Below, one piece after another: positions 766 through 60,343 of a stretch of DNA of 60,343 nucleotides. This stretch comes from a virus (taxonomy: Duplodnaviria > Caudoviricetes). The notes under the pieces were generated by a model that was given only the letters and a program-made list of their open reading frames with translations, made no database searches and was not told the DNA's origin. Where the stretch lies: IMG/VR virus record IMGVR_UViG_3300027813_000013, positions 1 through 60,343 of that record; one strand, given 5' to 3'. The translations under genes and the position numbers were made by a program. How positions within the stretch are numbered: the first letter of the stretch is position 1; every line of letters starts with the position of its first letter.

Positions 766-3700
766 TCATACTTTTACTTCAACAAATCCCGCATTACTAT
801 TAGATAATGCTATTCCAATTAAATCGTGTTTATGAGGCGTATATTCGTATTTAGTTATAACTTTTCCAGTTCCATCATTATAAGCTATAATAAGGTCTCC
901 TTTGTTACATCCTCCCTCGATCTTAACAAATATTCTACCTGTCAAACAAATGAAAATCATATATTCATTTTCTCTTTGTTTCGCACCATCATTCATTCTC
1001 AATCCAGGTTTGTCTGAAACAACACCAGCATAGGGCATTTCAGCTTGATACAAAGTAACTTCTTTTGTTCCTCCAATTGCTAAAACAGTTCCTGGATCAT
1101 AGATTTCATCAGATTCATATCTCTCGGCCAAGTCAGACCAGTTTGCTGATGTCGCTCTTCCATTAAATGTAACTGCATACATGTCATTATACACCATTGT
1201 TGATGTACCAATATCATGCGTATTATTTGCGACAGGAACAATAGCTACTGTTGTCATTGTTCCTTCAAAACCAGAAGTTCCGTGTGTTCTTAAATTTGCT
1301 ACTCCAGTTGCACCACTTGAAGAGTAAATTGGGAAATTCATAGCTAATTGAGTTGGAGTTGTAACATCATCTACAAGAAATCCAGAATACGCTCCAAGAG
1401 TAGTTGATGTTGCATAATATTGAACATATCCAGCGGCTCCTGCTGGGAAACTTCCATCTAGACCAGCACTTCCTGATGTACCAGCAGAACCAGCACTTCC
1501 AGCACTTCCAGAAGAACCAGATGAAGCATAAGTTAATCCAGAAGATCCCGAAGTACCAGAAGATCCTTCTCCAAAAGTTAATGCCGCCCAGCCTGTTTGC
1601 GGTCCCTCAAAAACAATTTTTACAGTATTTGAATCTATATACCGAGTTGATTCTGGTACAATTACATCATAATTAGAATCTACAACTTCTATATTTAATG
1701 GTCTAGTTCCTAAATTATGATTTATCAACCAAACAAGGGATGATGCGGCCTGAGTATGAATAAAAGAACCACCGTCTTGTCCAGATGATCCTGCACTTCC
1801 TGCAGAACCAGAAGATCCAGCAGAACCAGATGATCCAGCACTTCCAGAAGTTCCTGCAGTTCCTGCAGAACCAGCACTTCCTGCGCTTCCAGTAGAGCCA
1901 GATGAAGCATAAGTTAATCCAGAAGATCCCGAAGTACCGGAAGATCCTTCTCCAAAAGTTATTGCGGCATAGCCTGCTTGTGAAGTAGGAAAGATTATTT
2001 TTACAGTATTAGAATCTATGTATTGAGTTGATTCTGGAAAAATTACATTGTAATTGGTATCTACAACTTCAATATTTACAGGTCGTGTATTAAGATTGTA
2101 AGGTATCAACCAAACAAGTGCAGGCGTAGATTGTGTATGAATATAAGAACCGCCGTCTGATCCAGAGGATCCAGCAGTTCCACCGGTTCCAGAAGTTCCA
2201 TCTACGCCAGACGATCCTGCACTTCCAGCACTTCCAGCAGAGCCAGCACTTCCTGAACTTCCAGCAGAACCAGACGAACCAGCAGAACCAGAAGTTCCTG
2301 ATGTACCAGCATCACCAGTTCTTGCAAATGTAACGATTATTCTATCATCATCAGCAAAGAATGTATTTTGTCCTGCGATTTTTGAAACTTCTATTTCTTG
2401 AAAATCTGTTTCATTAGTAACCTCTGAAATTGTAAACATTACAAATTCAGAAGAAGCGCCTTTTTTAGATAATTTTATATGACCCTTAATCGCAGAAGTT
2501 GCTCCCTCCACTTGGTCTAAAAAATCTGAAGTTGATGTTCCGTTTACATCAGCTTCGCTTATAGAAATTCTGTCAACCAATGCCATACTTGTGGGAGCAG
2601 TTCCAGTATCAATTCCTACTTCAAGCCTACCAGCACCTGGATCACTTGCGGCTCCTGTAAATCCTGTAACTTCAAAATCATATTCGAAAGATGCACCACC
2701 AAAAGTTCCTGATGTACCAGCACTTCCTGATGTACCAGCACTTCCTGCGCTTCCAGCACTTCCAGCAGAGCCAGCAGATCCAGCACTTCCAGCAGAACCA
2801 GCAGAGCCAGATGAAGCATATGTTAGTCCAGAAGATCCTGCGCTACCTGCAGAGCCAGCACTTCCTGCACTTCCAGAAGATCCAGCAGAACCAGCAGATC
2901 CAGCACTTCCAGATGATCCTGCAGAGCCTGAACTTCCTGCAGATCCAGCACTTCCAGCAGAACCAGAACTTCCAGCACTTCCTGTGCTACCAGCAGAACC
3001 AGAACTTCCTGCAGAGCCAGAAGATCCAGCAGAACCAGAAGATCCAGCACTTCCTGCGCTACCAGCACTACCTGCGCTTCCAGCAGAGGCATAAGTCAAT
3101 CCAGAAGATCCTGCAGAACCAGCACTTCCTGCGCTTCCAGAAGATCCAGCACTTCCTGCAGATCCAGCACTTCCAGCAGAACCAGAACTTCCAGCACTTC
3201 CTGTGCTACCAGCAGAACCAGAACTTCCTGCAGAGCCAGAAGATCCAGCAGAACCAGAACTTCCTGCAGAGCCAGAAGATCCAGCACTTCCTGCGCTTCC
3301 AGCAGAACCAGCACTTCCTGCACTTCCAGAAGAACCAGAAGTTCCTGTAGTTCCAGAAGATCCAGATGAAGCATATGTTAGTCCAGAAGTTCCAGCAGAA
3401 CCAGAAGTTCCTTCTCCAAAAGTTACTGCAACATATCCTGCTTGTGCGGTAGTAAAAATTATTTTTATATTACTTGAATCAATAAATTGGGTTGATTCAG
3501 GAAAAAGCATATTGTAATTAGAATCTACAACTTCTATATTTACAAGTCTATTTCCTAAAGCATGATTTACTAGCCAAACAAGTGCAGGCGTAGATTGTGT
3601 ATGAATAAAAGAACCACCATCTCGTCCAGATGATCCTGCAGAACCAGCAGAACCAGCACTTCCAGATGATCCAGCACTTCCTGCGCTTCCTGCAGAACCA

Positions 3701-5373
3701 GAACTTCCTGCAGAGCCAGAAGATCCAGCAGAACCAGATGAACCAGCACTTCCAGCAGAGCCAGCACTTCCAGAAGATCCAGATGAAGCATATGTTAGTC
3801 CAGAAGAACCCGCAGATCCAGCACTTCCAGCAGAACCAGCAGATCCAGCACTTCCAGATGATCCCGCAGAGCCTGAACTTCCTGCAGAGCCAGCACTTCC
3901 AGCAGAACCAGAACTTCCTGCGCTTCCAGCAGAACCAGCACTTCCTGCGCTACCTGCAGAGCCAGCACTTCCTGCGCTACCGGAACTTCCAGCAGAACCA
4001 GATGTTCCTGAAGTTCCAGATGTACCAGCATCACCAGCCCTTGCAAATGTAACAACTATATCTTCATCATCTGCAAAAAAAGCATCATTTCCACCAACTT
4101 TTGAAACTTCTATCTCTTGAAAATCTGTGTAATTAGTAACCTCTGAAATTGTAAATATTACATATTCACTTGAAACTAATCTTCGATGAATTCTTACATG
4201 ACCTTTAATCGCAGAACTTGCTGTTTGTACTTGAGTTAAAAAACTTTCAGTTGATGTTCCATTTACATCTACTTCACTTATAGAAATTCTATCAACTGTA
4301 GAAAAATCAGTAGGCGCAGATCCAGTATCAATTCCTACTTCAACTCTACCAGCACCAGGATCACTTGCGGCGCCTGTAAATGTCGTAACTTCAAAATCAT
4401 ATTCGAAAGATGCACCACCAAAAGTACCATCTAATCCAGAAGATCCCGAAGTACCAGCACTTCCTGCAGAACCAGCAGATCCAGCAGATCCTGCGCTTCC
4501 AGCAGATCCAGCAGAGCCAGCACTTCCTGCACTTCCAGAAGAACCAGAAGTTCCTGCAGAGCCAGAAGATCCAGCACTTCCAGCAGAACCAGCACTTCCT
4601 GCGCTTCCAGCAGATCCAGCAGAGCCAGCACTTCCTGCACTTCCAGAAGAACCAGAAGTTCCTGCAGAGCCAGAAGATCCAGCACTTCCAGCAGAACCAG
4701 CACTTCCTGCGCTTCCTGCAGATCCAGCACTTCCAGCAGAACCAGCACTTCCTGCACTTCCCGAAGAACCAGCACTTCCAGAAGATCCAGATGAAGCATA
4801 TGTTAGTCCAGACGATCCAGATGTTCCAGAACTTCCTTCTCCAAAAGTTATTGCCGCCCATCCGGCTGTTGCCGTAGAAAATATTATTTTTACATTATTT
4901 GAATCTATGTATTGAGTTGATTCTGGAAAAATTACATTGTAATTGGTATCTACAACTTCAATATTTACGGGTCTAGTATTTAAATTATAAGGTATTAACC
5001 AAACAAGTGCAGGCGTAGATTGTGTATGAATAAAAGAACCACCATCTTGTCCAGATGATCCAGCACTTCCTGCGCTACCAGCAGAACCAGCACTTCCAGC
5101 AGAACCAGCAGATCCAGATGAAGCATAAGTCAATCCCGAAGATCCTGCACTACCTGCAGAGCCAGCAGATCCAGCACTTCCTGAACTTCCAGCAGAACCA
5201 GACGAACCAGCAGAACCAGACGAACCAGCAGAACCAGATGAACCAGCGGAGCCAGCACTTCCAGAAGATCCAGTACTTCCAGCAGAACCAGCACTTCCTG
5301 CAGAACCTGAAGAGTTGTTCAGATAAGTTTTTATACTAAATTCAGCGTGTTCGCCTTTAAGAAATAATGCCAT
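766..5373 (-). CDS. Modular collagen-like (Gly-Ser-Ala/Gly-Ser-Ser) fibre protein with C-terminal chaperone/peptidase-G2-like domain
   Basis: Long G-X-Y tracts; 4 copies of a HTQ..VW...HNL..RP.N.EVVD module; 2 copies of a FGGASFEYDF..DPGAG module. The C-terminus SDLAERYESDEIYDPGTVLAIGG..GVVSDKPG..ICLTGRI.VK resembles intramolecular chaperone domains of phage fibres. Confidence 0.75.
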   Translation of the reverse strand: MALFLKGEHAEFSIKTYLNNSSGSAGSAGSAGSTGSSGSAGSAGSSGSAGSSGSAGSSGSAGSSGSAGSAGSAGSAGSSGLTYASSGSAGSAGSAGSAGSAGSAGSSGQDGGSFIHTQSTPALVWLIPYNLNTRPVNIEVVDTNYNVIFPESTQYIDSNNVKIIFSTATAGWAAITFGEGSSGTSGSSGLTYASSGSSGSAGSSGSAGSAGSAGSAGSAGSAGSAGSAGSAGSSGSAGTSGSSGSAGSAGSAGSAGSAGSAGSAGSAGSSGSAGTSGSSGSAGSAGSAGSAGSAGSAGSAGSAGSAGTSGSSGLDGTFGGASFEYDFEVTTFTGAASDPGAGRVEVGIDTGSAPTDFSTVDRISISEVDVNGTSTESFLTQVQTASSAIKGHVRIHRRLVSSEYVIFTISEVTNYTDFQEIEVSKVGGNDAFFADDEDIVVTFARAGDAGTSGTSGTSGSAGSSGSAGSAGSAGSAGSAGSAGSAGSSGSAGSAGSAGSSGSAGSSGSAGSAGSAGSAGSAGSSGLTYASSGSSGSAGSAGSAGSSGSAGSSGSAGSSGSAGSAGSAGSSGSAGSAGSAGSSGRDGGSFIHTQSTPALVWLVNHALGNRLVNIEVVDSNYNMLFPESTQFIDSSNIKIIFTTAQAGYVAVTFGEGTSGSAGTSGLTYASSGSSGTTGTSGSSGSAGSAGSAGSAGSAGSSGSAGSSGSAGSSGSAGSSGSAGSTGSAGSSGSAGSAGSAGSAGSSGSAGSAGSAGSSGLTYASAGSAGSAGSAGSAGSSGSAGSSGSAGSSGSAGSTGSAGSSGSAGSAGSAGSSGSAGSSGSAGSAGSAGSSGSAGSAGSAGSAGSSGLTYASSGSAGSAGSAGSAGSAGSAGSAGSAGTSGSAGTSGTFGGASFEYDFEVTGFTGAASDPGAGRLEVGIDTGTAPTSMALVDRISISEADVNGTSTSDFLDQVEGATSAIKGHIKLSKKGASSEFVMFTISEVTNETDFQEIEVSKIAGQNTFFADDDRIIVTFARTGDAGTSGTSGSAGSSGSAGSSGSAGSAGSAGSAGSSGVDGTSGTGGTAGSSGSDGGSYIHTQSTPALVWLIPYNLNTRPVNIEVVDTNYNVIFPESTQYIDSNTVKIIFPTSQAGYAAITFGEGSSGTSGSSGLTYASSGSTGSAGSAGSAGTAGTSGSAGSSGSAGSSGSAGSAGSSGQDGGSFIHTQAASSLVWLINHNLGTRPLNIEVVDSNYDVIVPESTRYIDSNTVKIVFEGPQTGWAALTFGEGSSGTSGSSGLTYASSGSSGSAGSAGSAGTSGSAGLDGSFPAGAAGYVQYYATSTTLGAYSGFLVDDVTTPTQLAMNFPIYSSSGATGVANLRTHGTSGFEGTMTTVAIVPVANNTHDIGTSTMVYNDMYAVTFNGRATSANWSDLAERYESDEIYDPGTVLAIGGTKEVTLYQAEMPYAGVVSDKPGLRMNDGAKQRENEYMIFICLTGRIFVKIEGGCNKGDLIIAYNDGTGKVITKYEYTPHKHDLIGIALSNSNAGFVEVKV

Positions 5374-5693
5374 TAAATACTCGTATAACTAATTACCACT
5401 GAAACTTTGTTTATTGTATCAGCAATTGCTTGAATAGTGTCACTTGCACCCATCAAGATTCTCTCGCTTCCAAAAGCAAAAGTATCAGTTGCATTTATTG
5501 TTAATTCCTTCATTATCGTATGTTCATCACCCAAAGTGTCGCCACTAGGAACAATCCATACCGTTACATCTATATTTGAAGCATCTGTATTACAAAAAAA
5601 TATTGTTGTAACAGCAGATTCTCCTGATGAAGTATAAACCGTAGTAGGAGTTGCGGATGATGTACTCGCTATTAAATTTGTTTCGATTGACAT
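5373..5693 (-). CDS. Small beta-rich virion protein, putative fibre adaptor
   Basis: 106 aa with the pattern TTVYT..V.TIFFCN..V.VWIV..I.K...I common in marine phage fibre clusters. It is translationally coupled to both neighbouring fibre genes. Confidence 0.55.
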   Translation of the reverse strand: MSIETNLIASTSSATPTTVYTSSGESAVTTIFFCNTDASNIDVTVWIVPSGDTLGDEHTIMKELTINATDTFAFGSERILMGASDTIQAIADTINKVSVVISYTSI

Positions 5694-5694
5694 A

Positions 5695-8600
5695 TTAGAA
5701 TATTAATCCATAAGTTATTGCTTTTTTGCGTGAAACTAATTCATCGGGATCATCAGTTCCTTGTCTAAAATATATACCTGTTCCTCCTGCCCCCGAAGAA
5801 CTTGAAAAAACTGCAGATTGACCCGCAGACAAAGTAGGTTTATTTCCAGAAACATCATCTCTTTGAGACATCTGTACAAATCCAGTTGTTCCGCTTGTAC
5901 CTACCAAAAATGTTTTACCAGTCACGCTTAATTCATTACCATCAAATGTTAAATTTGCTTCTGCATCACCAGTAATAGTATCAGCATTAATAGAAATTAA
6001 ACGATCTTCTGCAGAATTATTTAGGTGTAAAAGCCCAGACGATCCTGCGCTTCCTGCGCTTCCTGCGCTTCCTGCGCTTCCAGAAGATCCAGATGAAGCA
6101 TATGTTAGTCCAGAAGATCCTGCAGTTCCAGAAGATCCTGAAGTTCCTTCTCCATAAGTTAATGCGACATATCCTTTTATCGCAGAAGTAAATACTATTT
6201 TTACAGTATTATTGTCTATAAATTGAATTGATTCTGGATAAATTGAATTATACCACTCATCCGTAACTTCTACATTTACAACTCTCAATCCTAAATTATG
6301 GGGTATTACCCAAGCCGCTGAAGCTACAGTTTGTGAATGTAAAAAAGAACTACCATCTTGTCCAGATGATCCAGCACTTCCTGCAGAACCAGCACTTCCT
6401 GCGCTTCCAGCAGATCCAGAAGATCCAGATGAAGCATAAGTTAGTCCAGACGATCCAGAACTTCCAGATGTACCAACATCACCAGTTCTTGCAAATGTAA
6501 CAACTATGTCTTGATTGTCAGGAAAAAATGCATTTTGTCCACCAATTTTTGAAACTTCTATTTCATGAAAGTCTGTTAGATCAGTAACCTCCGAAATCGT
6601 AAACATTACATATTGATCATGCTCTGATTTTTGATGAAGTCTTACATGTCCTCTAATCGCAGAAGATGATGTTGCTACTTGCTGTAAAAAACTCTCTGTT
6701 GATGTTCCGTTTACATCAGATTCGCTTATAGAAATTCTGTCAACTGTAGAAAAATCTGTTGGAGCAGTTCCAGTATCAATTCCTACTTCAACTCTACCAA
6801 CACCAGGATCACTTGGAGCTCCTGTAAACGATGTATTTTCAAAATCATATTCGAAAGCCGCCCCACCAAAAACACCATCTTGTCCAGATGATCCTGAACT
6901 TCCTGCAGAACCAGAACTTCCAGATGAGCCAGCACTTCCTGCGCTTCCTGCAGAGCCAGAACTTCCAGCAGAACCAGAACTTCCAGCAGAGCCAGAACTT
7001 CCAGCAGAACCAGATGAACCAGCACTTCCTGCACTTCCTGCGCTTCCAGTAGAGCCAGCAGAGCCAGAACTTCCAGCAGAACCAGAACTTCCAGCAGAAC
7101 CAGATGAACCAGCACTTCCTGCAGAACCAGCAGAACCAGCGGAGCCAGCACTTCCAGCAGAGCCAGCAGAGCCAGATGAAGCATAAGTTAATCCAGAAGA
7201 TCCAGATGTTCCAGAACTTCCTTCTCCAAAAGTTAATGCCGCCCAACCAGAAATTGTAGAAGCAAAGATTATTTTTACATTATTTGAATCTATATAATTA
7301 ACTGATTCTGGATAAATTACATCATAATTGCTATTGACAACTTCAAGATTTATCGGTCTAGTTCCTAAATTGTGATTTATCAACCAAACATTGGAGGCTA
7401 CAGCTTGAGTATGAATAAAAGAACCACCATCTTGTCCAGAAGATCCTGCACTTCCTGCAGATCCAGCACTTCCAGATGAGCCAGAAGATCCGGTCAGTCC
7501 TGTTGTTCCTGAACTACCAGCAGATCCAGAAGAACCAGATGAAGCATATGTTAGTCCAGAAGATCCTGCAGATCCAGATGAAGCATATGTTAGTCCAGAC
7601 GATCCAGAAGATCCAGTAGAACCAGAAGTTCCAGAATCACCAGTTCTCGCAAATGATGCAACAAGTTCAGTATTGTTTTGAAAATTATTTAATGAAGAGT
7701 CTAAAAATGTAACATTTACATAATACCATGAAGGATTTGTAGTGTCAAATCCATTGATACCATATAAGAAAAAATCTTCAGGAGCTGATTTATCATAAAC
7801 CCGAAAATGGCCTTTTGGATCACTAAAAGCAACATCATCGATTGTCTGTAAGAAAGAATCTATTGTTGTACCATCTTGATCGGTATCACTTATTCTTAAT
7901 CTATTAGCAGTATTGGGATATGTAAAAGTACCAGAAGTTAATGTAAATGCTAATTTACCTGTGCCTGGATCATCCGTTGATTGATCTGTATTATAACGAT
8001 ATGCAAATGAAGCACCGCCAAAACCGCCATCTTGTCCAGATGATCCTGAAGTACCAACTGTACCAGAACTTCCTGAAGTTCCTGAACTTCCATCTGAACC
8101 AGAAGATCCAGCACTTCCTGCAGAACCAGCACTTCCTGCGCTTCCAGCAGATCCAGAACTTCCAGTAGAACCAGACGATCCAGCACTTCCTGAGATACCA
8201 GAAGAACCAGCAGAACCAGCACTTCCTGCGCTTCCAGCACTTCCCGAAGAACCAGAAGTTCCGTCTAATCCAGATGATCCCGCACTTCCTGCAGAACCAG
8301 CACTTCCAGCAGATCCAGAACTTCCAGCAGAACCAGACGATCCAGCACTTCCTGAGCTACCAGCACTTCCAGCAGAGCCAGCACTTCCTGCAGAGCCAGC
8401 AGAACCAGCACTTCCTGCAGAACCAGCACTTCCTGCGCTTCCCGAAGAACCAGATGAAGCATATGTTAGTCCAGAAGAGCCTGCAGTTCCAGAAGACCCT
8501 GAAGTTCCAGAAGATCCTTCTCCAAAAGTTACTGAACACCAACCTGCAACAGAAGAATCAAATATTATTTTTACATTATTAGAATCTGTAAATTGAATAG

Positions 8601-9420
8601 TTTCTGGGACAATTACATTGTAATTAGAATCTACAACTTCAATATTTAAAGGTCTAACGCCTAAATTGTGATTTATTAACCAGACAAATGATGCTATAGA
8701 TTGAGTATGAATATGAGAACCACCATCTTGTCCAGACGATCCCGCACTTCCAGAAGTTCCTGTAGATCCAGCAGATCCAGATGAAGCATAAGTTAAACCC
8801 GAAGACCCAGAAGTTCCAGCAGTTCCAGCAGATCCAGAAGTTCCTGTATCTCCAGAAGAGCCAGAAGTTCCATGAGTACCTAAAAATGATCCATCAACTC
8901 CAGATGAACCCGCAGATCCCGAAGAAGTATCTCCTCCTCCGCCACCTCCAGATTCGCCCCAACCACTTCCTCCAGCTACTCTTTGTGCAGTTTGAGTGGC
9001 TTTTTTGCTAACTTTCTTAACAACTGCTTTGAAATTATCTAACTCTTTTGCAAGTTTAGTTACATCAGCATCATCACCTGGTTCTCCCTGGTCTCCTTTT
9101 GGACCTATAGGACCAGTATCTCCTAGCTCCCCCTTAGGACCCAGAACACCCTGTGGACCAATTCTTCCTGCTTCTCCTGCTTCTCCTTTAGAGCCTGCTT
9201 CTCCTGCAGAGCCCTGTTCACCCTTTTCGCCCTTGGATCCTTCAGTACCCTTAATCTCAAGAACTTTGACTTTTTCACCAGTAACAGGATCTAAAATTTC
9301 TTTTACACCCTCAACCAGTTCGTCTTTAGTCTTTTTTAATTGTTTTTTAGTATAAGCAAGAGAAGTTGCTAGAACCTTACTTAAATCTAAGTCTTTAGAC
9401 TCTTTTTGATCATCTTTCAT
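5695..9420 (-). CDS. Modular collagen-like fibre protein
   Basis: N-terminal helix, a classical collagen tract ([13 protein letters not shown]...[13 protein letters not shown]), then GSA/GSS tracts with 3 HTQ/HSQ modules and 2 FGGA(S/A)F modules. It ends in hydrophobic KAITYGLIF. Confidence 0.75.
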
Positions 9421-9445: not shown

Positions 9446-11128
9446 TCAATCTACAAATTTTTCATCATCTTCTAAAACAGAAAAAAGAATATCATTTACT
9501 TTATCTTTAATATCATTCTCTTTTTTCGCTGATTCAAACTTTTCTTCAATTTTCTTATCAATATTTTCATTGATATTTTGTTTATTGTTTGTATCTATTT
9601 CTACAGAATTGAACTGCATATCTTCTTCTCCCGAAAATCTAGGATCATCCATCTCTTTTTGAATTTGTTCATCATTAGTTTTAACTTCATCATCAGTCAT
9701 CATTAAAATATGCTTTCTAATATATTCATGCGACCAATATTTTCCAGCATAATCTTGTAAATCTCTTAAAATGTTTAATCTATCTTGCATAAGTTCACTC
9801 TGTTTTATTTCTGCAAAATGACTATCATTTTCAAATTCATAAAATATTTCATTTTTAATATTTTTCCAATCGTCTTTAGACATTATGCCCTTGAGGGTTA
9901 ATTGTCTTTCCATCATTTCATCAAACATTAAACTAAATCTGCTTTGAAGTTTATTAACAAAACGTGTAAATTTAACTTCATCTCTTGAAATTTCAGTAGC
10001 ACGACCAATCGTATAATTTGCTTCTGATTCAAGTCTTGAAATAGGAACACCTAAAGATTTGTAAAGTTTTTTCTGAAAATATAATACATCTTCAATATCT
10101 CCAAGATTTGCACCACCAGGCAAAGTAGTAATTTCTGTTCCTCTTCCACCCTCTCTTCGTGGCATCCAATAATCTTCAAGCATTGACATGTGTTTTCTAT
10201 CATCTCTAACTTCACCTGTTTGAGCATCATATACAAGTTTGTTTTTATATCTTGCCATTAAGTCACGCATGTATTGTTCTGCTTTTAACTTAGGTAAATT
10301 TCCAACATCAACATAAAAAATTCTTCTCTCTGGGGCTCGTGAAATACGATAAATTACGAGAGAATCCTCGATCATTCTTAATTGATTTAATGGTTTGATT
10401 GCTTTGTGTAGGTAGGACAAAACTAATGTACGTGTACTGTTCATCAGTCCTGAATGTGTATATACAATCGCATCAGGAGATATTTTTAAACCAGTGGCGG
10501 CACTTGTAAAAGCAGTACCCATTGTCTGCCCCTGTGATTGATATATTCCTTTTTGATTATAAACATAATATTCCGTGACGGTGGTTTTTGTTTTACCGTC
10601 AGGCTGTCTGTCGTTTTTCTTTTCTCGAATTTTCTTTATTTTTCTAGGATCTAATACTCTTAATTCATGAATACCTTTTTCCATATTGTTTTCATCAACA
10701 ATAACATGATAATAAATTCTACCATCAATATACCATCTTTTAAAAACATCATGTCCTAAATTTTGTAGATCTAAAAGTTTACTTATTTGTTTAAATTCTA
10801 GTCTTATTTTGTCTCTAATAGGCTCAGAAACATTTAAATTATCTACATTAATTCTTACGAGGGGTTTTTCTTTTGAGGCTACAATTGCTTCATTAATAAT
10901 ATCATCAATAGCATTTTCTACTTCTGCTTGAAGACCCATATCACGATATCTGTTTATTAATTCAGATTCGCTTTTTATAGCTCCTTCTGTATCGACATAT
11001 GTTCCATAAGCACCACCAGATGCTACTGTTAATGAACCATCTTCATATTCTGGTTCAGCAAAGGTTTGGGCTTTTACGTTTTTCTTTTCTTTTTTTCCGA
11101 TTGAAAAACCGAACAGTTCAATAGGCAT
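9446..11128 (-). CDS. gp20: Portal vertex protein
   Basis: T4 gp20 motifs: WYIDGRIYYH, SYLHKAIKPLNQLRMIEDSLVIYRISRAPERRIFYVDVGNLPK, EDYWMPRREGGRGTEITTLPGG. Confidence 0.98.
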   Translation of the reverse strand: MPIELFGFSIGKKEKKNVKAQTFAEPEYEDGSLTVASGGAYGTYVDTEGAIKSESELINRYRDMGLQAEVENAIDDIINEAIVASKEKPLVRINVDNLNVSEPIRDKIRLEFKQISKLLDLQNLGHDVFKRWYIDGRIYYHVIVDENNMEKGIHELRVLDPRKIKKIREKKNDRQPDGKTKTTVTEYYVYNQKGIYQSQGQTMGTAFTSAATGLKISPDAIVYTHSGLMNSTRTLVLSYLHKAIKPLNQLRMIEDSLVIYRISRAPERRIFYVDVGNLPKLKAEQYMRDLMARYKNKLVYDAQTGEVRDDRKHMSMLEDYWMPRREGGRGTEITTLPGGANLGDIEDVLYFQKKLYKSLGVPISRLESEANYTIGRATEISRDEVKFTRFVNKLQSRFSLMFDEMMERQLTLKGIMSKDDWKNIKNEIFYEFENDSHFAEIKQSELMQDRLNILRDLQDYAGKYWSHEYIRKHILMMTDDEVKTNDEQIQKEMDDPRFSGEEDMQFNSVEIDTNNKQNINENIDKKIEEKFESAKKENDIKDKVNDILFSVLEDDEKFVD

Positions 11129-14247: not shown

Positions 14248-14670
14248 ATGGAGAAGGCAAAAATAAGATTTGAAAAAAAAATTATAATGACAAATAACTG
14301 TTGGTTTTGGGCCGCAAGTAAAACAAAACAGGGTTATGGCATGTTTTCGTATGATGGAAAATCGATTCCTGCTCATAGGTTTGCCTATATTGCTTATAAG
14401 GGACCCATTGAACAAGATAAAATAGTTCATCAATCATGCAATAACACATACTGCGTAAATCCAGAACATCTGTATTTAACCACAAAAAGTGAAACGAGAA
14501 ACAAGTTTTATGAATTAAGAATTAATCCTGAAATGATATTTGGTGAATCTGTGAGGTATTTGGATAAATTGAAAAAATTGAGACCCGATTTAAAACATGA
14601 TATAGAGGAATTAATAGGTCAAATAAAAAATCCCAAAAACATTTATCGCATTAATGTAGATAATCAGTAG
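14248..14670 (+). CDS. Zn-binding HNH-family (homing endonuclease-like) protein, probably degenerate active site
   Basis: CWFW....GYG......AHRFAY...GPI....VHQSCNNTYCVNPEHL matches the HNH_3-type motif. Confidence 0.8.
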   Translation: MEKAKIRFEKKIIMTNNCWFWAASKTKQGYGMFSYDGKSIPAHRFAYIAYKGPIEQDKIVHQSCNNTYCVNPEHLYLTTKSETRNKFYELRINPEMIFGESVRYLDKLKKLRPDLKHDIEELIGQIKNPKNIYRINVDNQ

Positions 14671-43213: not shown

Positions 43214-46200
43214 TATATCAATTCTCCAGATTCTACAGTTACAGGGTTTATATCAAATCCAATATTAAGATTTTTTCTTTCTTTTATTGATTGTCCTTCA
43301 AGACTTATAATACTCGTTTGAACTACAACTTTATAGAGGTTTGTCGTGCTTGTTCTTGGCATTGGATCTTTAGTTTTTAAATCTATATTAAAAAATTCTT
43401 TCTCAAATATACCATTTTCATCAGCCGGAGAACTTGCCTCAAAACTAGTTTTCGGCTGTTGTGAAAATTGATAAAAAGTAGTATCAGCAGAAAAGCTGGA
43501 ACGAGTTATTCCCTCATTGGCACCAAAAGTTCCTTGATACAATGCAATTGCATCATTTTTTGTAGGTGTTCCTGAAAAAAGAAGATTTCCCATTTGAATT
43601 TTTGGTGAAAATTCTACAGTTCTCTCCATCTGGGTATTAATTGCATTGCGATCAGCTTTACTTAATTCATTAGCATCATTTGTAAATTTAATTCTTATAG
43701 TTCCATCATCATCTAATTTCGATAATCTCTCTATTTCTATCCAATTACCGTCTTTATCTTGTCCTTGTATCTCATATACATATGGTACTATTTTTTGAGC
43801 AATGCTATCATCTTTATCAAATAAATTTGCAAGAAATCCTTTTCCAAGAGTTTCCAATGCACCAAAGCTATCCATGAATTTATCAAATTTTGATATGTCA
43901 GGACCTTGAGCAAAAAACACAATAGCACCAGAATATTTTAAATTATCAAGTTCACTTAATGCCTTAGGAATGCCATCAGGCTCTATTTCTTGTTCTTGTA
44001 TACTTGGTCTTAAAACTTTTCTTTTTACTTTTTTATCTAATCCAGTAAAAGGATCTTGTATTACGGTTTCTGATTCAACTGTTTCCAGACTTATTTCATG
44101 TACTTTATTTTTTGCAGTTTGTATTGCTTTTATGTTCGACAATTTCTTTTTAAAATCACCAATTCCATCTCCACTAAATTGTGCCGAATAAAGACCTGCC
44201 GCATTTAATCCCTTAGAGAAAAATGCGATCAATTGTTGAATTTGATCATTCAATCTTTGTATTGCTACTATCTGTCTTTCTAAAAATGCTATGTATGCAT
44301 CTATTGATTTAGCTATAGATTCAACTTGTTTTTTGAATCCTTTTACCATACCGATTGCTTGGTCTATGGTTGCACCATATGCTGGAAATAAATCCGAAAC
44401 TCTTATATATTTCCAATTAGGTGAAAGATTTTTACTAGATGCTAACAATTGAAACGGTTGATTGGGAGGACCATCAACACCAGCTTTTCCAGAAGGTATT
44501 TTCGTTTTCCAAGAATATACTACACCGTCTGGTGGAGATATTGCTTTTTTAACATCAATGAAATTTCCCAAATCTGTTGTATATGTTCCGTCAAAATTTA
44601 AAAATCCCAATTCAATCTCAAGAGACTTCATTCCAGTAGGTTTCGGTGATGCTTGAGGATTGACATTAGGGTTGGGATAAGTAAAAAGTTTTTCTTTTGT
44701 TAAGTCGTCCATGCTTTCTATAGGCACCCCATCAACTTTAATGTTAGCAACATGCCATTGTACACCTATTGACGGAAACACATCTAATAATTTACCATAA
44801 TTAAATTCAAATTTCTTATCTACACCCAAACTTGCATCATAACCTTTTAAATTTCTATCGGATAGATCAAATGGTTGCAAATATTGATGATCAATTATCG
44901 CTCCTTTTTTAAGTTCTCGTATAAACCTCATATAAGAGTTTATGACAAGTTGACTATTGCCGCCTCCCAGTAAGATGTTAAGTCCTTTTATAAAACTACC
45001 GGCCGATTCACATTCAGTTCTAATTTCATTCCCCCATGTACCCGTGGGTATGATTTCTGATATGGTAGTACTGCCTTCTCTAATTGTTCCAAAAAATGTA
45101 CCAGTTGATTTTGGAATTGGTTTTTCTAATGTATCTGTTCTAAAAATTGCATATTCTTCTTTAGGAACATATTCTTTTGAAATTGCTCGGACAATTGGTG
45201 ATGTGGCCGAATTAAGGGGTTTATGATTTGTTCTTTGAAGTTCGCCTCTGACACTTTTTACTTTAACACTATTTTGTATAACCATGCCATTTAGAATAAC
45301 TATTGGAAGATGTTCAATAACTTCAGCGGAAAAACTACTAACTCCTAATATTCCCCCCTCTTGAACGATTTTTTGACCTGGTTTAAACATGGGTATTTTA
45401 AATTTCTTATCGCTTTCATGTACCCCATTTTTATATGTTCCATCTTTAAGACCTGTTCTTGGCTTAAAATCACCAAGCTCATAAAACCATTCTGATGTCG
45501 CCAAAGCCTGACTCTGCTGATACTCTGCTTCCCCAGACTCTTCCCAACCATTAATAGCTGACCAGGTCCTGGTATCTTTAAGTACTGAATTATGAAGAGG
45601 TTCTCCTAACGAAATAGTCTTTTTTGTATCATCTAATTTATTCGAAGGATTGAGTAAGACAGGAAACAATTCATCGCCTATAACAGAACCAAAATAATCC
45701 GCAAATGATTGTACAATTTGAATTACATCATTAATTGTTGGAAGAGTGAACATAATCATAAATGCTTTATAGGGACCAGAACCTGTTGGTTTATTACCAT
45801 CTGGACTAGACCCCGATAAAGAATCTATTATTTTATTTACGCAATCTTCAGGGGTTAATTCTTTAACTAATAGATTTTTCTGTGTAACATCAATTGATGT
45901 AAAAAGCGCATCTTTCGCTCCTTCAACAATTTGTCCAGTCAATGATTGACCAAGAGACTCTTGAGTTATACCCATTCCAGGATGCCATCCTGCTTGGCGT
46001 TTGGCGGCATCCGCGGCAGTATCAGTATAAAAAACAGAAGAACCTTTCCATAATTCTGGATGAAAAAAATTACGAATACCCATCAACGTATCATAAACTG
46101 CGGTTTTTGTCAGAACAGGACGTCCCCTCTCGATGGTAAGCAATTCTTGACCAGGAGTAAGTAGAGACTCTCCATTTTTTGTTTTTACAAAGGTACCACG

Positions 46201-46641
46201 TTCACTATAACCAACTGCCGTTGCATCAAGTCCCGACATGGCGGCAACAAGACCAAGTACTGCTTCATCTAATTTATCCGTGTTCAATGGTTGAGGATAT
46301 GTTCCATCTTTCCAGGGCCAAACACTAACACTACCAAATCCTAAAGCATCCATTTCTTCAAGTGCTTCTATCAAAGCATCAATAGTCTCAATTAAAGCCG
46401 CAACAAGAGGATTTTTAAAAGCCTGTAAAAATAATTTTGTTGCTTGAAAAAACTGAATTAACGTGTCTGAAACTCTTGAAAATTCAGCACCAAATGCACT
46501 TAATCCTTCTAAAAATGCATTCATCGCATCACCTGCAGATCCACCGAACGGAGAACCCTCCATTTGTTTTAAATAAACATCATCTCCTGTTTGAGAAGTC
46601 CCAGGATCTGTACTTTCTTTTGTTGGGACAGCTTCAGCCAT
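43213..46641 (-). CDS. Large hypothetical protein in the spike locus
   Basis: 1142-aa ORF coupled to its neighbours, with two long amphipathic helical segments. No family recognised. Confidence 0.6.
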   Translation of the reverse strand: MAEAVPTKESTDPGTSQTGDDVYLKQMEGSPFGGSAGDAMNAFLEGLSAFGAEFSRVSDTLIQFFQATKLFLQAFKNPLVAALIETIDALIEALEEMDALGFGSVSVWPWKDGTYPQPLNTDKLDEAVLGLVAAMSGLDATAVGYSERGTFVKTKNGESLLTPGQELLTIERGRPVLTKTAVYDTLMGIRNFFHPELWKGSSVFYTDTAADAAKRQAGWHPGMGITQESLGQSLTGQIVEGAKDALFTSIDVTQKNLLVKELTPEDCVNKIIDSLSGSSPDGNKPTGSGPYKAFMIMFTLPTINDVIQIVQSFADYFGSVIGDELFPVLLNPSNKLDDTKKTISLGEPLHNSVLKDTRTWSAINGWEESGEAEYQQSQALATSEWFYELGDFKPRTGLKDGTYKNGVHESDKKFKIPMFKPGQKIVQEGGILGVSSFSAEVIEHLPIVILNGMVIQNSVKVKSVRGELQRTNHKPLNSATSPIVRAISKEYVPKEEYAIFRTDTLEKPIPKSTGTFFGTIREGSTTISEIIPTGTWGNEIRTECESAGSFIKGLNILLGGGNSQLVINSYMRFIRELKKGAIIDHQYLQPFDLSDRNLKGYDASLGVDKKFEFNYGKLLDVFPSIGVQWHVANIKVDGVPIESMDDLTKEKLFTYPNPNVNPQASPKPTGMKSLEIELGFLNFDGTYTTDLGNFIDVKKAISPPDGVVYSWKTKIPSGKAGVDGPPNQPFQLLASSKNLSPNWKYIRVSDLFPAYGATIDQAIGMVKGFKKQVESIAKSIDAYIAFLERQIVAIQRLNDQIQQLIAFFSKGLNAAGLYSAQFSGDGIGDFKKKLSNIKAIQTAKNKVHEISLETVESETVIQDPFTGLDKKVKRKVLRPSIQEQEIEPDGIPKALSELDNLKYSGAIVFFAQGPDISKFDKFMDSFGALETLGKGFLANLFDKDDSIAQKIVPYVYEIQGQDKDGNWIEIERLSKLDDDGTIRIKFTNDANELSKADRNAINTQMERTVEFSPKIQMGNLLFSGTPTKNDAIALYQGTFGANEGITRSSFSADTTFYQFSQQPKTSFEASSPADENGIFEKEFFNIDLKTKDPMPRTSTTNLYKVVVQTSIISLEGQSIKERKNLNIGFDINPVTVESGELI

Positions 46642-53604: not shown

Positions 53605-53609
53605 TAACT

Positions 53610-54191: not shown

Positions 54192-54751
54192 TGCCTTTAA
54201 ACATAGACACATTTAGAAATAATTTAGCGTTTCATGGTGGTCCTGCACCAGTCAATAGATACGAAGTTACTATTCCAAGATTCCAAACCAGTTCGTTAAC
54301 TCTTCTCTGCGAACAGGCAGAACTTCCAGGTAAAACCATACTCACAGTTGAAGATAAATTATATGGACCCGTAAGAAAAATAGGTTATGGTCAAATGTTT
54401 ATTGATACTACAATGACATTTATTTGTACGGCGAACGGTTGGGAAGAAAAAGAATTTTTTGATGATTGGCAGAATCAGATAGTCGATCCCGAAATGTATG
54501 ATGCTTCATACTATGAAGATTATATAACTGATATTCGCTTAAAAACGTTTACAGAAGGAAATCAACCAAGCTATAGCATAATTTTTATGGAAGCATTTCC
54601 TTTAAATGTAGGGGCAATAAATTTGGGATGGAGCCAAAATAATGAATATGCCAGACTTAGTGTTACATTCGCATATCGAAGATGGAAACAATTGCCAAAA
54701 GAACAAGATTTAGGCGGTTCGCTTGGTCAGTCTGAAGGATTTCAAACATAA
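54191..54751 (+). CDS. Tail-tube initiator / gp19-like protein (gp54-like)
   Basis: NRYEV.I, CEQAELPGKTI.T, GY......TMTF, FFDDWQ..I, F.EAFP..VG.I.L, LSVTFAYR.W. Confidence 0.75.
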   Translation: MPLNIDTFRNNLAFHGGPAPVNRYEVTIPRFQTSSLTLLCEQAELPGKTILTVEDKLYGPVRKIGYGQMFIDTTMTFICTANGWEEKEFFDDWQNQIVDPEMYDASYYEDYITDIRLKTFTEGNQPSYSIIFMEAFPLNVGAINLGWSQNNEYARLSVTFAYRRWKQLPKEQDLGGSLGQSEGFQT

Positions 54752-54769
54752 TTAAAAAATGGAGATATA

Positions 54770-55516: not shown

Positions 55517-55701
55517 TATGTAGTCATAATAATTTAACAAACTATTATCAACTAACCTTTCAGTTAATGCAACATCATAAATATAGTTTAACAGAGATAG
55601 AAAATCTAATACCCTTTGAAAGAGACATTTACGTAGAAATGTTAATATCCCACATAGAAGAAGAAAACAGAAAAAATGAAGAACATCAGAGAAGGCAGTA
55701 A
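55513..55701 (+). CDS. gp51: Baseplate hub assembly catalyst (short gp51-like)
   Basis: L.NYY...FQLMQHHKYSLTEIENLIPFERDIYV.ML..HIEEEN. Confidence 0.9.
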   Translation: MICSHNNLTNYYQLTFQLMQHHKYSLTEIENLIPFERDIYVEMLISHIEEENRKNEEHQRRQ

Positions 55702-57539: not shown

Positions 57540-57544
57540 TAGAA

Positions 57545-57582
57545 TGAGTTTGTTCAATGAAGTTAATCAAAGAACAAACTCA
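57545..57582. terminator. Inverted repeat between convergent genes, probable bidirectional terminator or processing stem
   Basis: Perfect 11-bp arms TGAGTTTGTTC / GAACAAACTCA between the tape-measure stop and the gp32 stop. Confidence 0.6.
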
Positions 57583-57591
57583 AAAATATGT

Positions 57592-58482
57592 TTAATTATC
57601 TTCTGCTAACTTAGCAAAATAAGACATATCCTCATCTTCTCCTTCAGAAGATGTTTCCTTATTCGTAGGAGGAGTAAAATTTTCTTCTGCAGTTTTTGGT
57701 TTAGATACAGGAGTACGCACCTCAGGAAGATTAGTTTCTACTATAAGAACAGAATCCAATCTCGCTTTCAAATCTTCATAAGACTTAAATTGATCATCAC
57801 CAGTAAACTCTGTAAGAGCATACTCTGAATTCCAAATCTTTTCAAGTTCAGTTTCATCATCTACGAGTTGTGTACCTTTATCAAATTCACTCTTATCGTA
57901 ATTTCGATAACCTTCAACTTGACGAATCTTTAATTTGAAGTTAGCCCCCTCCCAAAGATCAAATGGGTTGACAGGAGATTCGTCTTCAAATTCGGGATTC
58001 ATCACATCATTAACCTTATCGAAAATCTTCTTCCCAAATTTATACAAAAAGACTTTCCCCTCATTCTGAGGATTCTTTGTGTCAGAAACAACATAAATGT
58101 TGCTGATGTAAGTTAAGCGGCGCTTTTGCTTACGAGCAATATCTTTGTTCGCCTCTATTCCAGAATTCCAAAGTTGAGAATTATACTCTGAAACAGGATC
58201 TTTCTTACCAAGAGTTGTCAAAGAGTTTTCAATGTACCATTGTCCTGTTGGTCCTTGAAAACCATGATTGAAGACTCTTGCCCATGGAACATCCTCTCCA
58301 TCTACTGGGGGAAGAAATCGAATAACAGCAAATCCGTTTCCAGACTTGTCGATTTCAGGTTTCCAAAATCGATCATCGACATAACTCTTTGATTCAGAAG
58401 GAGTGTCGATCTTCTCGATTTCTTTGTGAAGATTTTGCATGAAGGATGCACGGGATTTTTTTAGTGCGGATAGTGTAGCCAT
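57592..58482 (-). CDS. gp32: Single-stranded DNA-binding protein
   Basis: DDRFWKPE.DKSGNG.AVIRFLP, HGFQGP.G.WYIENSLTT, GKVFLYKFGKKIFDK, GANFKLKI, acidic tail with YFAKLAE. Confidence 0.98.
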   Translation of the reverse strand: MATLSALKKSRASFMQNLHKEIEKIDTPSESKSYVDDRFWKPEIDKSGNGFAVIRFLPPVDGEDVPWARVFNHGFQGPTGQWYIENSLTTLGKKDPVSEYNSQLWNSGIEANKDIARKQKRRLTYISNIYVVSDTKNPQNEGKVFLYKFGKKIFDKVNDVMNPEFEDESPVNPFDLWEGANFKLKIRQVEGYRNYDKSEFDKGTQLVDDETELEKIWNSEYALTEFTGDDQFKSYEDLKARLDSVLIVETNLPEVRTPVSKPKTAEENFTPPTNKETSSEGEDEDMSYFAKLAEDN

Positions 58483-58526
58483 ATTTACCTTTCGTATATC
58501 GGAATATTCGTTGTATTAGTTGTATA

Positions 58527-59117
58527 TTAAATTTTGTCTCGTAAAATCTTACGAAACTTCGTCTTATCCACCTCCAAAAATGGAGTGTATTTTAAAACTT
58601 TATCTCTAAACTGAGGCCAGACAAAAGTTTCTTTTATCTTTTGATCCCAGTCAGGAACAAAGTTAAGTATCATATTAAGTATGGAAAAAGTTTCCATACA
58701 AATATATTTAGCAATCGCCTGTTTCAGTAATAAAGGATGTTGACCTTTTTTAATTTTGAACCAATTTTCAAAATCTTCTTTGATCAACAATTTATCAATA
58801 TCATTACTAAAAATATAACTCATGCTTTGTATTCTTTTTTGCCATTCTTTATATTTGACTTCTGCTTGTGAATCAAGTGCATCACCTATCCACAAATTTT
58901 CGTTCTCAATAAAGTTAGCAACAAAGAATTTCGATATCTCATCATCCTTATAACTTTTTGACAATTTCACAAAAAAGATTTGATCGTTGCGTTTTTTAAA
59001 AGCATTAAATGAGATTTTTCTTTTTTTATGCTTAAAGTAATCATACTTATTAGCATGGAAATGAGTCTTGATTGAAACATATTCTTTATAGCAATCAAAC
59101 GGATCCATTTTTATCAT
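58527..59117 (-). CDS. gp59: Helicase loader
   Basis: Y..Y..IK.HF....YDYFK, F.KRND..FF.KL, FFVANF, W.KRIQS..Y.F..D, HP.LL, I..ET, KY.PFL. Confidence 0.9.
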   Translation of the reverse strand: MIKMDPFDCYKEYVSIKTHFHANKYDYFKHKKRKISFNAFKKRNDQIFFVKLSKSYKDDEISKFFVANFIENENLWIGDALDSQAEVKYKEWQKRIQSMSYIFSNDIDKLLIKEDFENWFKIKKGQHPLLLKQAIAKYICMETFSILNMILNFVPDWDQKIKETFVWPQFRDKVLKYTPFLEVDKTKFRKILRDKI

Positions 59118-59338
59118 AGTCCTGGTATTGTAGCAGTTTTTGGGAGATAATGCAAGGCTGTAACCTCTTCTCTTAATTTATCTTTCAGAGAACCCTGAAC
59201 AAGTTTTCCAACTGTTTGAGGTTCCATTTGTGTTTCTTCACAATAATAGGATATTGCATCCAAGTATGTCATTTTTTTACTACTAACAATGTCTTCTATG
59301 ATAATTGCAAAATCTAGAGGTTTTATAGTTTTAATCAT
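59114..59338 (-). CDS. gp33: Late transcription coactivator
   Basis: F...IE.IV.....TYLDAI..YCEE...EP..V.KL....LKDKL..E...L.YLPK. Canonical gp33-gp59-gp32 order. Confidence 0.9.
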   Translation of the reverse strand: MIKTIKPLDFAIIIEDIVSSKKMTYLDAISYYCEETQMEPQTVGKLVQGSLKDKLREEVTALHYLPKTATIPGL

Positions 59339-60343
59339 TTCAGCAGTTTTTCTTTGTCTATTACTCTTATTACTTTAAGCACTTTTTGATAAACATTTTC
59401 TGGTGTGATAGTTTTAGTACATTCAAACATTCTATCAGTATTTTTATGATCTGGACACCAGATCCAATCGCCTGGATCAAATTTATGTCGATTATAACAA
59501 CTATTACAAACAGCATCATTATGAATTCTGAAACATTTTGAAGAGAATTCTGATTTAGGATTACTAAATCCTGATATTAATATTACATATTTATTTAAAG
59601 CCCACGCTAACCATGATAGACCAGAACCCAATCCAATGAAAAACTCAGCACCATTTAAAGTTGCTATCGTTTGATCTAAAGTTCGACCATGCCTGCCTAT
59701 CACATTTTTAGGTGATTTATTAAAATATTCTCCTTGTCCAAATGACTCATGTTTATCAATACATACTACATTATAACCCTTTTTGGATAAAAAGTCAACC
59801 ACTTTGTCCCAGCCCTCTGGATTATTCCAATATTTTGCTTGAGCAGTTGATTGCATACCAATGCAAACATATGGTTTTTTCAATTCTGTTTCTGTTTCTT
59901 TAACTTTTATGTTACATCTTGTTTCTTTAAAATCTTTAATTCCAAGAATACCTGCACATAATTCTTGCAAAGAAACATCTTTCATATCTACAGGGGATTG
60001 GGTACTAGTCTCAAAAAAACCTATTCTATAAGAAGATACAAAATCATTAAAACCAGATTCAGGAGTTATAAAGGTTATTTCAGGATATGAATCTATCAAA
60101 TGCTCATTGTAAAATGTACTGCAATACATTTTACAATTATGTTTTTTACGAAATTCTTCAACAACTGGCGTCCAAGCTAAAGTATCTCCCAATGCAACTG
60201 AATCAAACCAAACAAAAACATTTTTATTTGTAAGGTCTTGTTCATACTCAAATTCTATTTTTTCTGTTTCGATATTTATTGCTTCAACCCTCCAATTTAT
60301 ATAATAATCAAGACCGCAAGCAACCCATCCTCCAGTAGAAATA
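59335..60343 (-). CDS. Aah/TibC-family (BAHT) protein O-heptosyltransferase, 5' end outside the window
   Basis: The frame stays open past the ORF-track start (..GGWVACGLDYYINWRVE..VFVWFDSVALGDTLAW..). Motifs LGDxLxW, YVCI..QSTAQAKYWNN..GW, FFIGLGSGLSWLAW, ISGFS.P..EF and the iron-binding C-x2-C...WCP.H.....FECTK.I match the family. Confidence 0.85.
   Translation of the reverse strand, partial: ISTGGWVACGLDYYINWRVEAINIETEKIEFEYEQDLTNKNVFVWFDSVALGDTLAWTPVVEEFRKKHNCKMYCSTFYNEHLIDSYPEITFITPESGFNDFVSSYRIGFFETSTQSPVDMKDVSLQELCAGILGIKDFKETRCNIKVKETETELKKPYVCIGMQSTAQAKYWNNPEGWDKVVDFLSKKGYNVVCIDKHESFGQGEYFNKSPKNVIGRHGRTLDQTIATLNGAEFFIGLGSGLSWLAWALNKYVILISGFSNPKSEFSSKCFRIHNDAVCNSCYNRHKFDPGDWIWCPDHKNTDRMFECTKTITPENVYQKVLKVIRVIDKEKLLK

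Follow-up and report, generated by a model that had tools for sequence, protein, structure and literature searches.

A TibC/Aah-type glycosyltransferase fusion and serine-rich collagen-like fibres in a marine T4-like myovirus: a candidate system for O-glycosylation of the virion

This study focused on a truncated glycosyltransferase gene and two long fibre genes in the IMG/VR virus record IMGVR_UViG_3300027813_000013 (Duplodnaviria; Caudoviricetes). The window, as the term is used here, is that entire record of 60,343 bases, which has a G+C content of around 33% and a CheckV completeness of 33%. Matches to PHROG families across it recover the core genes for structure and replication of a T4-like myovirus, a marine virus of whose genome the window covers one third. 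One end carries a gene for a domain of the TibC/Aah type, and the other end two genes for serine-rich, collagen-like proteins. From the comparisons made in the present study we hold, with moderate confidence, that the TibC-like fusion enzyme probably glycosylates the phage's own Ser-rich collagen-like fibres. The features on which this interpretation turns are as follows.

59335-60342, minus strand: C-terminal TibC/Aah-type (BAHT, GT9) domain of a multi-glycosyltransferase gene (from TIGR04414, the TibC structures and relatives)
60184-60186, minus strand: codon of the LGD Asp, aligned with the TibC catalytic base Asp-110 (alignment; role from PMC4358343)
59833-59847, minus strand: QSTAQAKYW motif, its Thr and Lys corresponding to TibC Thr-226 and Lys-230, which contact the beta-phosphate (alignment; PMC4358343)
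59668-59670, minus strand: Thr codon at the position of TibC Arg-286, the adenine N1 contact (alignment)
59419-59508, minus strand: four Cys codons, aligned with the TibC iron-finger residues Cys-339, 342, 358 and 370 (alignment; PMC4358343)
766-5373, minus strand: fibre gene 1, 1535 aa (Pfam Collagen, PHROG tail fibre families)
5373-5693, minus strand: small open reading frame (ORF) of 106 aa between the fibre genes (weak phrog_1276 match only)
5695-9420, minus strand: fibre gene 2, 1241 aa, directly downstream of the portal gene (Pfam Collagen, PHROG tail fibre families)
9070-9249, minus strand: N-terminal canonical collagen-like segment of fibre 2, charged, with Pro, Lys and Glu (translation, tract map)

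The sequence-only reading of this DNA had recognized a heptosyltransferase with intact-looking LGD and AKYW motifs and four Cys ligands, and a search against the autotransporter heptosyltransferase family agrees with it. The ORF at 59335-60342 scores 316.7 bits against the hidden Markov model (HMM) TIGR04414 (hepto_Aah_TibC), over the curated cut-off of 200, with the match covering HMM positions 49-373 of 374. It also matches PF01075 (GT9) at 1.3e-10 and the TibC chains 4rap/4rb4 at E 4e-65. The motifs were followed in an alignment of 67 sequences, comprising the window, 63 distinct phage domains, the enzyme of Microcystis phage Mel-JY01 and two bacterial enzymes. The position of the catalytic base is Asp in all 67, the sugar-contacting Trp-305 is likewise kept in 67/67 (window included), and each of the four iron-finger positions is Cys in 67/67; iron binding by the window protein itself is predicted. 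Thr-226 is kept in 64/67 sequences and Lys-230 in 63/67, with Arg in the remaining four, and both residues are present in the window, where the AKYW Lys codon lies at 59833-59835. The alignment therefore confirms all of these motifs, though the ligand contact Arg-286 is replaced by Thr. According to the passages of PMC4358343 drawn on here, all characterised family members are protein Ser O-glycosyltransferases. PHROGs hold no family for the TibC-like domain.

The domain belongs to a much larger protein. Four relatives (L003, L008, L015 and L380; 79-98% identity) carry it as the last ~335 aa of an ORF of 1136-1184 aa, and the layout in the window's clade is GT2 (residues ~7-132), GT4 (~563-720) and then the TibC-like domain (785-1128). 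Judged by these relatives, the window gene is the truncated C-terminal third of a predicted GT2 + GT4 + TibC-like fusion of ~1140 aa, so that the part lying beyond the window end is not the ~48 aa estimated earlier but ~800 aa (GT2 and GT4). The N-terminal beta-barrel of TibC (residues 1-97) is cut by the window end; since the match of the full-length relative L003 to TIGR04414 (326.6 bits; HMM positions 27-374) begins at position 27, most of the barrel seems to be present behind the GT4 domain. A relative of the enzyme is encoded by 125 viral stretches, and in the 80 loci kept from these the TibC-like domain usually stands last in a long ORF. In other phages it is fused to FkbM, MT24 or MT23 methyltransferases, to GT4, or to a second copy of itself, and several phages have a paralogue of the enzyme immediately downstream. 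Directly upstream of the fusion gene in the relatives is a gene of 887-894 aa for a GT4 + FkbM methyltransferase protein, and the cluster neighbours include GT2, GT4, GT8, methyl- and sulfotransferases, UDP-galactopyranose mutase, an epimerase and a DegT aminotransferase. Given that the enzyme is one domain of a three-glycosyltransferase fusion that follows a GT4-FkbM gene, a built-up and possibly methylated glycan is likelier than the bare heptose first envisaged.

These neighbours are typical glycan-building enzymes, and they would also fit a cluster whose role is to alter the envelope glycans of the infected host, a function proposed for cyanophage clusters of the lipopolysaccharide (LPS) type, with the fibres being unrelated to it. 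In the passages of PMC12801897 cited here, the 13 glycosyltransferases of a cyanomyovirus are read as modifiers of the cell surface or of DNA. We consider an envelope role unlikely for the present enzyme: members of TIGR04414 are protein O-glycosyltransferases, not enzymes of lipid-linked glycans, the iron finger and catalytic residues are wholly retained, and the presence of Ser/Thr-saturated fibres beside the enzyme would be left unexplained.

The two window fibres total 2776 aa, close to the ~2,800 aa originally estimated. Both match Pfam Collagen (PF01391; E 4.5e-84 for fibre 1 and 3e-55 for fibre 2), and the best PHROG matches of both are tail fibre families. Gly-X-Y repeats account for 693 residues in 11 tracts of fibre 1 and 516 in 12 tracts of fibre 2, or 1,209 residues altogether, of which Ser contributes 261 and 176, Thr 29 and 31, and Pro 0 and 5, respectively. 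GSA is the commonest triplet (137 in fibre 1, 56 in fibre 2), followed by GSS (50 and 34), and Ser sits chiefly at the X position; of the 231 triplets of fibre 1, 193 have Ser at X, and the Y position is taken by Ala in 143 and by Ser in 68. The tracts are thus nearly devoid of proline, all five Pro being in fibre 2. The charged, Pro-containing N-terminal segment of fibre 2 differs from the Ser-rich tracts. At the DNA level, the repeats have periods that are multiples of nine and match at merely 62-91%, which indicates a repeat kept at the protein level rather than a fresh slippage array or a chance occurrence.

Between the tracts lie globular domains. Those of fibre 1 comprise four ~70-aa beta-sandwich domains, two ~130-aa domains and one 236-aa C-terminal domain, and in fibre 2 the tracts alternate with two kinds of globular domain; over both fibres, the ~70-aa domain occurs seven times and the ~130-aa domain four times, interspersed among the tracts. 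The ~70-aa repeated domain, folded as an 81-aa segment, is predicted to be a beta-sandwich, with a predicted local distance difference test (pLDDT) score of 83, and had no match in the PDB at E <= 0.001. The single-sequence fold of the 236-aa C-terminal domain was unusable (pLDDT 33), and its named relatives are only hypothetical proteins of Campylobacter phages. A recurrent interruption, G-L-T-Y-A-S-S-G, was also seen at the ends of Gly-X-Y tracts, eight times in fibre 1 (residues 81-1280) and seven times in fibre 2 (209-1105). It is retained in lineage relatives (L145, L154) and absent from the fibres of eight other lineages, and may represent a kink, a register shift or a recognition site.

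The evidence that links enzyme and fibres comes mainly from gene neighbourhoods in other viruses. An ORF was counted as a Ser/Thr collagen-like one when it had 15 or more triplets, when Ser or Thr filled no less than half of its X/Y positions, and when it lay no more than 10 kb from the enzyme. Such an ORF was found at 20/80 viral loci, representing 13/27 lineages at 70% identity or 10/19 at 55%. Viral TibC-type genes are often directly upstream of Gly-Ser/Thr-Ser fibre genes, and in L043, L071, L067 and L030 the gap between the two, which are on the same strand, is just 0-68 bp. The enzyme-adjacent fibres are of the GSS/GTS kind, with a Ser/Thr content of 0.6-1.0 and nearly no Pro, and among loci with any collagen-like ORF near the enzyme, 20/21 are of the Ser/Thr type. 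A random control of 80 unrelated viral loci (1.06 Mb, drawn with a 14-mer from the window; 23 of them under 40% G+C) gave 0/80 with a Ser/Thr-type ORF and a single collagen-like ORF, which was Pro-rich. A second control, of RecA loci from one AT-rich marine lineage, also gave 0/80. Fisher's test for the neighbourhood association returned p values of 4.9e-7 by locus and 1.1e-9 by lineage.

Whole records were compared using the L030 fibre as a detector, which gives 13 matches on the window's own fibres. It matched 25/49 enzyme-bearing records at E <= 1e-10 and 21/49 at 50% identity or more, versus 1/50 random records (31-35% identity) and 0/50, respectively. All three enzyme-bearing virus records that are at least 90% complete match this fibre, as does the record of the cultured phage Mel-JY01. 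The sequence-only reading had proposed co-occurrence of the enzyme with GSA-repeat fibres across phage genomes as a check; for Ser/Thr collagen-like fibres, chiefly of the GSS/GTS kind, co-occurrence is seen both in neighbourhoods and in whole records. The reverse comparison found the enzyme in 0/10 records with fibre relatives, all of which are at most 33% complete, with none extending 50 kb upstream of the fibre. A tblastn search of named phages with a GSS/GTS fibre matched only the C-terminal tail-fibre domain, the low-complexity filter masking the repeats.

Among cultured viruses, Microcystis phage Mel-JY01 has a fibre ORF 1.7 kb upstream of a GT4-FkbM-BAHT gene. The fibre frame (PP395634.1, L094:2-3052, plus strand) runs from the record's first bases, and specifies at least 1016 aa with 202 Gly-X-Y triplets (GTS 77, GSS 57). 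The deposited annotation there has two minus-strand hypothetical coding sequences and covers just the last 534 bases on the plus strand, so the fibre gene seems to be mis-annotated and was probably split by the record start.

Within the window's own lineage, the fibres follow the portal gene, which served as the synteny anchor.

9446-11128, minus strand: portal protein, gp20-like (phrog_213, E 2e-205)

A homologous fibre gene lies after the portal in 59/62 loci with a portal at least 70% identical, and the remaining three loci end at the portal; at loci with ~52% portal identity, such a fibre was found in 0/18. Three lineage records are long enough to show both genes, and 3/3 have both, at nearly the same distance.

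Window: enzyme-fibre gap 49.9 kb
IMGVR_UViG_3300028277_000001 (L015 + L116): fusion gene and fibres, gap 49.8 kb
PAAV01000055.1 (161 kb): fusion gene and fibres, gap 49.5 kb

The third of these (161,038 bases; L380, L427-L435) is filed under a Chloroflexota metagenome-assembled genome (MAG), aligns colinearly with the window (68-87% identity in DNA), and carries gp21-23, gp41-47, UvsW/X/Y and RegA. It resembles an almost complete genome from the window's phage lineage that was binned with a bacterium. Two records of other T4-like lineages (G111 and G112; 128 and 85 kb) have neither gene and are uninformative.

A number of observations weigh against fibre glycosylation as the role of the enzyme. 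Several concern the association itself: 14/27 lineages are without a Ser/Thr fibre within 10 kb, 24/49 enzyme-bearing records are without a fibre match, and the random controls are richer in G+C (46% vs 33%). Most of the 24 unmatched records are fragments, and they include all 11 short records of the window's clade, which are too short to reach a fibre 50 kb away. Others concern the window lineage. Enzyme and fibres are 50 kb apart in the window rather than adjacent, and the three records that carry both are close relatives and so count as one evolutionary event. The Y position is Ala in 143/231 triplets of fibre 1 and 70/172 of fibre 2, whereas in enzyme-adjacent fibres elsewhere it is nearly always Ser. 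In a quick tree of the enzymes (midpoint root; support by the Shimodaira-Hasegawa-like approximate likelihood ratio test, SH-aLRT, only), the window clade (six rows, SH-aLRT 95) is a branch separate from the main fibre-adjacent clade. The autotransporter-linked enzymes of E. coli and Caballeronia are nested among the phage rows of the same tree, so the substrate has changed within the family and is not readable from homology. A Ser/Thr/Asn-rich protein of 321-327 aa is encoded within the gene cluster and is an alternative acceptor candidate. [quoted passage not shown] ADP-heptose genes were seen neither upstream in G001 (40 kb) nor in PAAV01000055.1. The known BAHT substrates, as given in the passages of PMC4358343 cited here, are beta-helical strand-loop-strand repeats and not collagen.

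The association could be a by-product, with fibre genes and accessory glycosyltransferase islands sharing the variable host-range regions of large aquatic phages, and with a Gly-Ser-Ala helix that needs no modification. The Ser-rich collagen-like fibres match several PHROG tail fibre families from cultured phages, and the TibC-like enzyme is encoded in only 4/50,697 named phage records, so many Ser-rich fibres probably exist without it; the random controls are also unmatched in genome size as well as G+C. We nevertheless regard mere co-location as quite unlikely. It does not sit well with same-strand gaps of a few tens of bases or less in several lineages, with the absence of Ser/Thr fibres from the 80 RecA-lineage loci and from the 18 loci of other T4-like lineages, or with the strong bias towards the Ser/Thr type among collagen-like ORFs near the enzyme.

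It is unlikely, in our judgement, that the fusion enzyme modifies a different protein (the 321-327-aa product of the cluster, a component of capsid or tail, or a protein of the host) while the fibres stay bare. The distance between enzyme and fibres in the window and the separate branch of its clade are in keeping with this idea, as is a conserved Ser/Thr-rich ORF on the opposite strand in the L015, G001 and L380 clusters (S+T fraction 0.25). The apparent substrates of the family also vary in cellular genomes (AIDA, and giant proteins with Ig_J/fn3, CARDB or FG-GAP/RTX repeats). On the other side, the 321-327-aa protein has no repeat structure and no family match, the recurrent neighbour over 27 enzyme lineages is the Ser/Thr collagen-like fibre, and the window's lineage retains fibres and enzyme together. 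Gene placement in cellular genomes also speaks for the fibres as target. Among 42 cellular loci from species-representative genomes, a GSS/GTS collagen ORF directly follows the enzyme in 2/42, and 13 large ORFs chosen directly downstream comprise eight with AIDA repeats, four other giant surface proteins and one with no match. Immediately after the cellular enzyme gene, then, there is commonly a gene for a giant repeat protein, and in the known cases this protein is the substrate. It was also observed that Lentisphaerae/Victivallales MAG contigs (L384, L387, L395 and L403) have a TibC-like gene followed by proteins of 1310-2456 aa that are not autotransporters and carry Ig_J/fn3, FG-GAP, RTX or CARDB repeats, and the bacterial substrate range of the family may be wider than autotransporters.

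The proposal that the phage uses host ADP-heptose to hyperglycosylate its own fibres has comparative support as regards the fibre target, and its donor is unproven, given the Thr at position 286 and the lack of ADP-heptose genes. In TibC, Arg-286 contacts adenine N1 and is the basis of ADP-sugar specificity, according to the passages of PMC4358343 cited here. [quoted passage not shown] A different phage record, L068 (110 kb, 95% complete), bears on the donor, as its BAHT likewise has Thr at the Arg-286 position.

L068:11410-13365, minus strand: HldD-like, HldE kinase-like and HldE adenylyltransferase-like genes beside the TibC-like fusion gene (best matches)

The scores of these genes are all under the respective cut-offs: 162 bits for HldD (274.6), 117.5 for the HldE kinase (345) and 97 for the HldE adenylyltransferase (181.5). 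An APS-kinase-like gene and a sulfotransferase gene lie nearby. The combination of Thr at this position with neighbouring ADP-heptose-like genes means that loss of the Arg does not exclude ADP-heptose, and a heptose donor is plausible in part of the BAHT family. As the window lineage is without such genes, any donor would have to come from the host, and heptose is a guess.

Among the T4-like core genes of the window, a set of replication genes adjoins the enzyme gene.

57592-59338: gp32, gp59 and gp33 replication genes (PHROG matches)

Further core matches are to the tail tube, sheath, large and small terminase and neck proteins and to those of the baseplate wedge and hub. Identity of the portal to its counterparts in named Synechococcus, Pelagibacter and Methylophilales phages does not exceed 53%, and a DNA-level comparison with named phages gave no match to the window. 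Because the gene lies next to gp33, gp59 and gp32 in this lineage, it could be supposed that the enzymes hypermodify phage DNA with sugars in the manner of the T-even glucosyltransferases. We know of no BAHT that acts on DNA. The passages of PMC12619734 cited here describe phage glycosyltransferases as often DNA-modifying, but a DNA substrate is very unlikely in this case: the 161-kb relative has a C-5 cytosine DNA methylase and no dCMP hydroxymethylase among the ORFs scanned, and the neighbours of the enzyme in other phages are fibre genes.

Other observations on this lineage may be recorded here. An HNH endonuclease ORF (14248-14670, plus strand), probably that of a mobile homing endonuclease, lies on the opposite strand between the tail sheath and large terminase genes. 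A pair of ORFs, each exactly 1407 aa long (32146-36369 and 38990-43213, minus strand), is separated by 2.6 kb; the first matches baseplate wedge families, and neither the second nor the ORF at 43213-46641 (1142 aa) had a PHROG or NCBIfam family match. Immediately past the window end, upstream of the glycosyltransferase genes, the relatives have a same-strand gene run of ~40 kb.

L378:10265-19725 and L379:289-16988 (record G001): loci underlying this description
L427:1250-2248 and L432:2575-8439 (PAAV01000055.1): loci underlying this description

The run encodes 12 or more radical SAM/SPASM enzymes, together with a nitroreductase, 2OG-Fe(II) oxygenases, AMP-binding enzymes, a carbamoyltransferase and a CMP-sugar-type cytidylyltransferase fused to an aminotransferase, and further radical SAM genes come after the fibres in the relatives. 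This run is a modification island, and one that is unusually large for a phage.

If the enzyme does act on the fibres, the process might be pictured as follows. The fibres would be trimers resembling beads on a string, in which small beta-sandwich domains separate the proline-free, collagen-like rods of Gly-Ser-Ala/Gly-Ser-Ser repeats. The three-domain enzyme of ~1140 aa would act in the cytoplasm during infection, its TibC-like domain placing a first sugar, from a host nucleotide-sugar (possibly ADP-heptose), on the Ser hydroxyls of new fibre chains. This would occur before or during trimerisation, much as TibC and Aah modify bacterial adhesins while these are still in the cytoplasm. Lengthening and methylation of the glycan could then fall to the GT4 and GT2 parts of the fusion and to the GT4-FkbM methyltransferase protein encoded upstream. 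The product would be a densely O-glycosylated fibre with an altered surface, and the sugars may stabilise the helix in place of the hydroxyproline or charge pairs of other collagens. A more general scheme is offered only tentatively, and seems to us possible rather than probable: in large aquatic phages, the window's T4-like lineage included, the TibC-type domain would prime hundreds of Ser on proline-free collagen helices, the fused GT4/GT2 domains and methyltransferases would build an oligosaccharide on every primed Ser, and the fibres would come to resemble bottle-brushes coated in sugar, with the glycans replacing hydroxyproline in holding the helix together, in this lineage maybe as part of the ~40-kb radical-SAM-rich island, which would then be one for virion modification.

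Should fibre glycosylation prove correct, it would be a second and mechanistically different kind of phage virion glycosylation, the first viral use of the autotransporter heptosyltransferase family, and a natural collagen helix relying on Ser-linked sugars rather than proline. It would bear on host recognition, protease resistance and mimicry of cell-surface glycans by abundant marine phages, and would provide an enzyme for dense O-glycosylation of simple Gly-Ser repeats. The idea is directly testable because in the cultured Mel-JY01 the fibre gene neighbours the gene of a related enzyme.

Several known systems can be compared with the present one. Freeman et al. (2023) reportedly described virion glycosylation in mycobacteriophages, in which phage glycosyltransferases decorate the phage's own virion proteins. 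This is the sole case of virion glycosylation cited in the passages of PMC12801897 and PMC12619734 considered here; these place the glycans on the C-termini of capsid and tail-tube subunits and mention neither the BAHT family nor collagen-like repeats. Literature searches returned no paper linking phages, collagen-like fibres and the BAHT family. The repeats of the spore glycoproteins BclA and BclA3 are Thr-rich and contain Pro. These surface filaments likewise have hydroxyproline-free Gly-X-Y repeats that are O-glycosylated by a dedicated glycosyltransferase such as SgtA (cf. PMC7157674). Their enzymes belong to other glycosyltransferase families, and the systems are cellular, not viral. The Gly-X-Y periodicity of the window fibres also gives strong partial matches to Scl1/Scl2 and Lcl (NF038329, NF038330 and NF046116; 288.5, 227.8 and 211.2 bits), all under the curated cut-offs of 325, 400 and 500. 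Those proteins stabilise the helix by Pro and charged pairs, whereas the phage fibres have Ser and Ala at X/Y and no LPXTG anchor.

The closest parallel is with the TibC-TibA and Aah-AIDA-I pairs of E. coli (TIGR04414; PDB 4RAP/4RB4; PMC4358343), whose enzymes belong to the same family by HMM and PDB match and share the catalytic Asp, the beta-phosphate Thr/Lys, the sugar-contacting Trp and the four iron-finger Cys. Genes for TibC and Aah adjoin those of AIDA-repeat autotransporters, and no autotransporter was seen among the window genes by PHROG matches. TibC and Aah are stand-alone proteins of ~400 aa, and TibC assembles as a dodecameric ring. The window domain is phage-encoded, predicted to be fused behind GT2 and GT4, and differs from TibC at Arg-286 and apparently at the thumb tip. 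Their acceptor is adjacent and beta-helical; the candidate acceptor of the phage is a collagen-like Gly-Ser-Ala helix encoded 50 kb away. The presumed logic is nonetheless shared, with a cytoplasmic enzyme that would add many sugars to the Ser residues of a long, repetitive surface protein.

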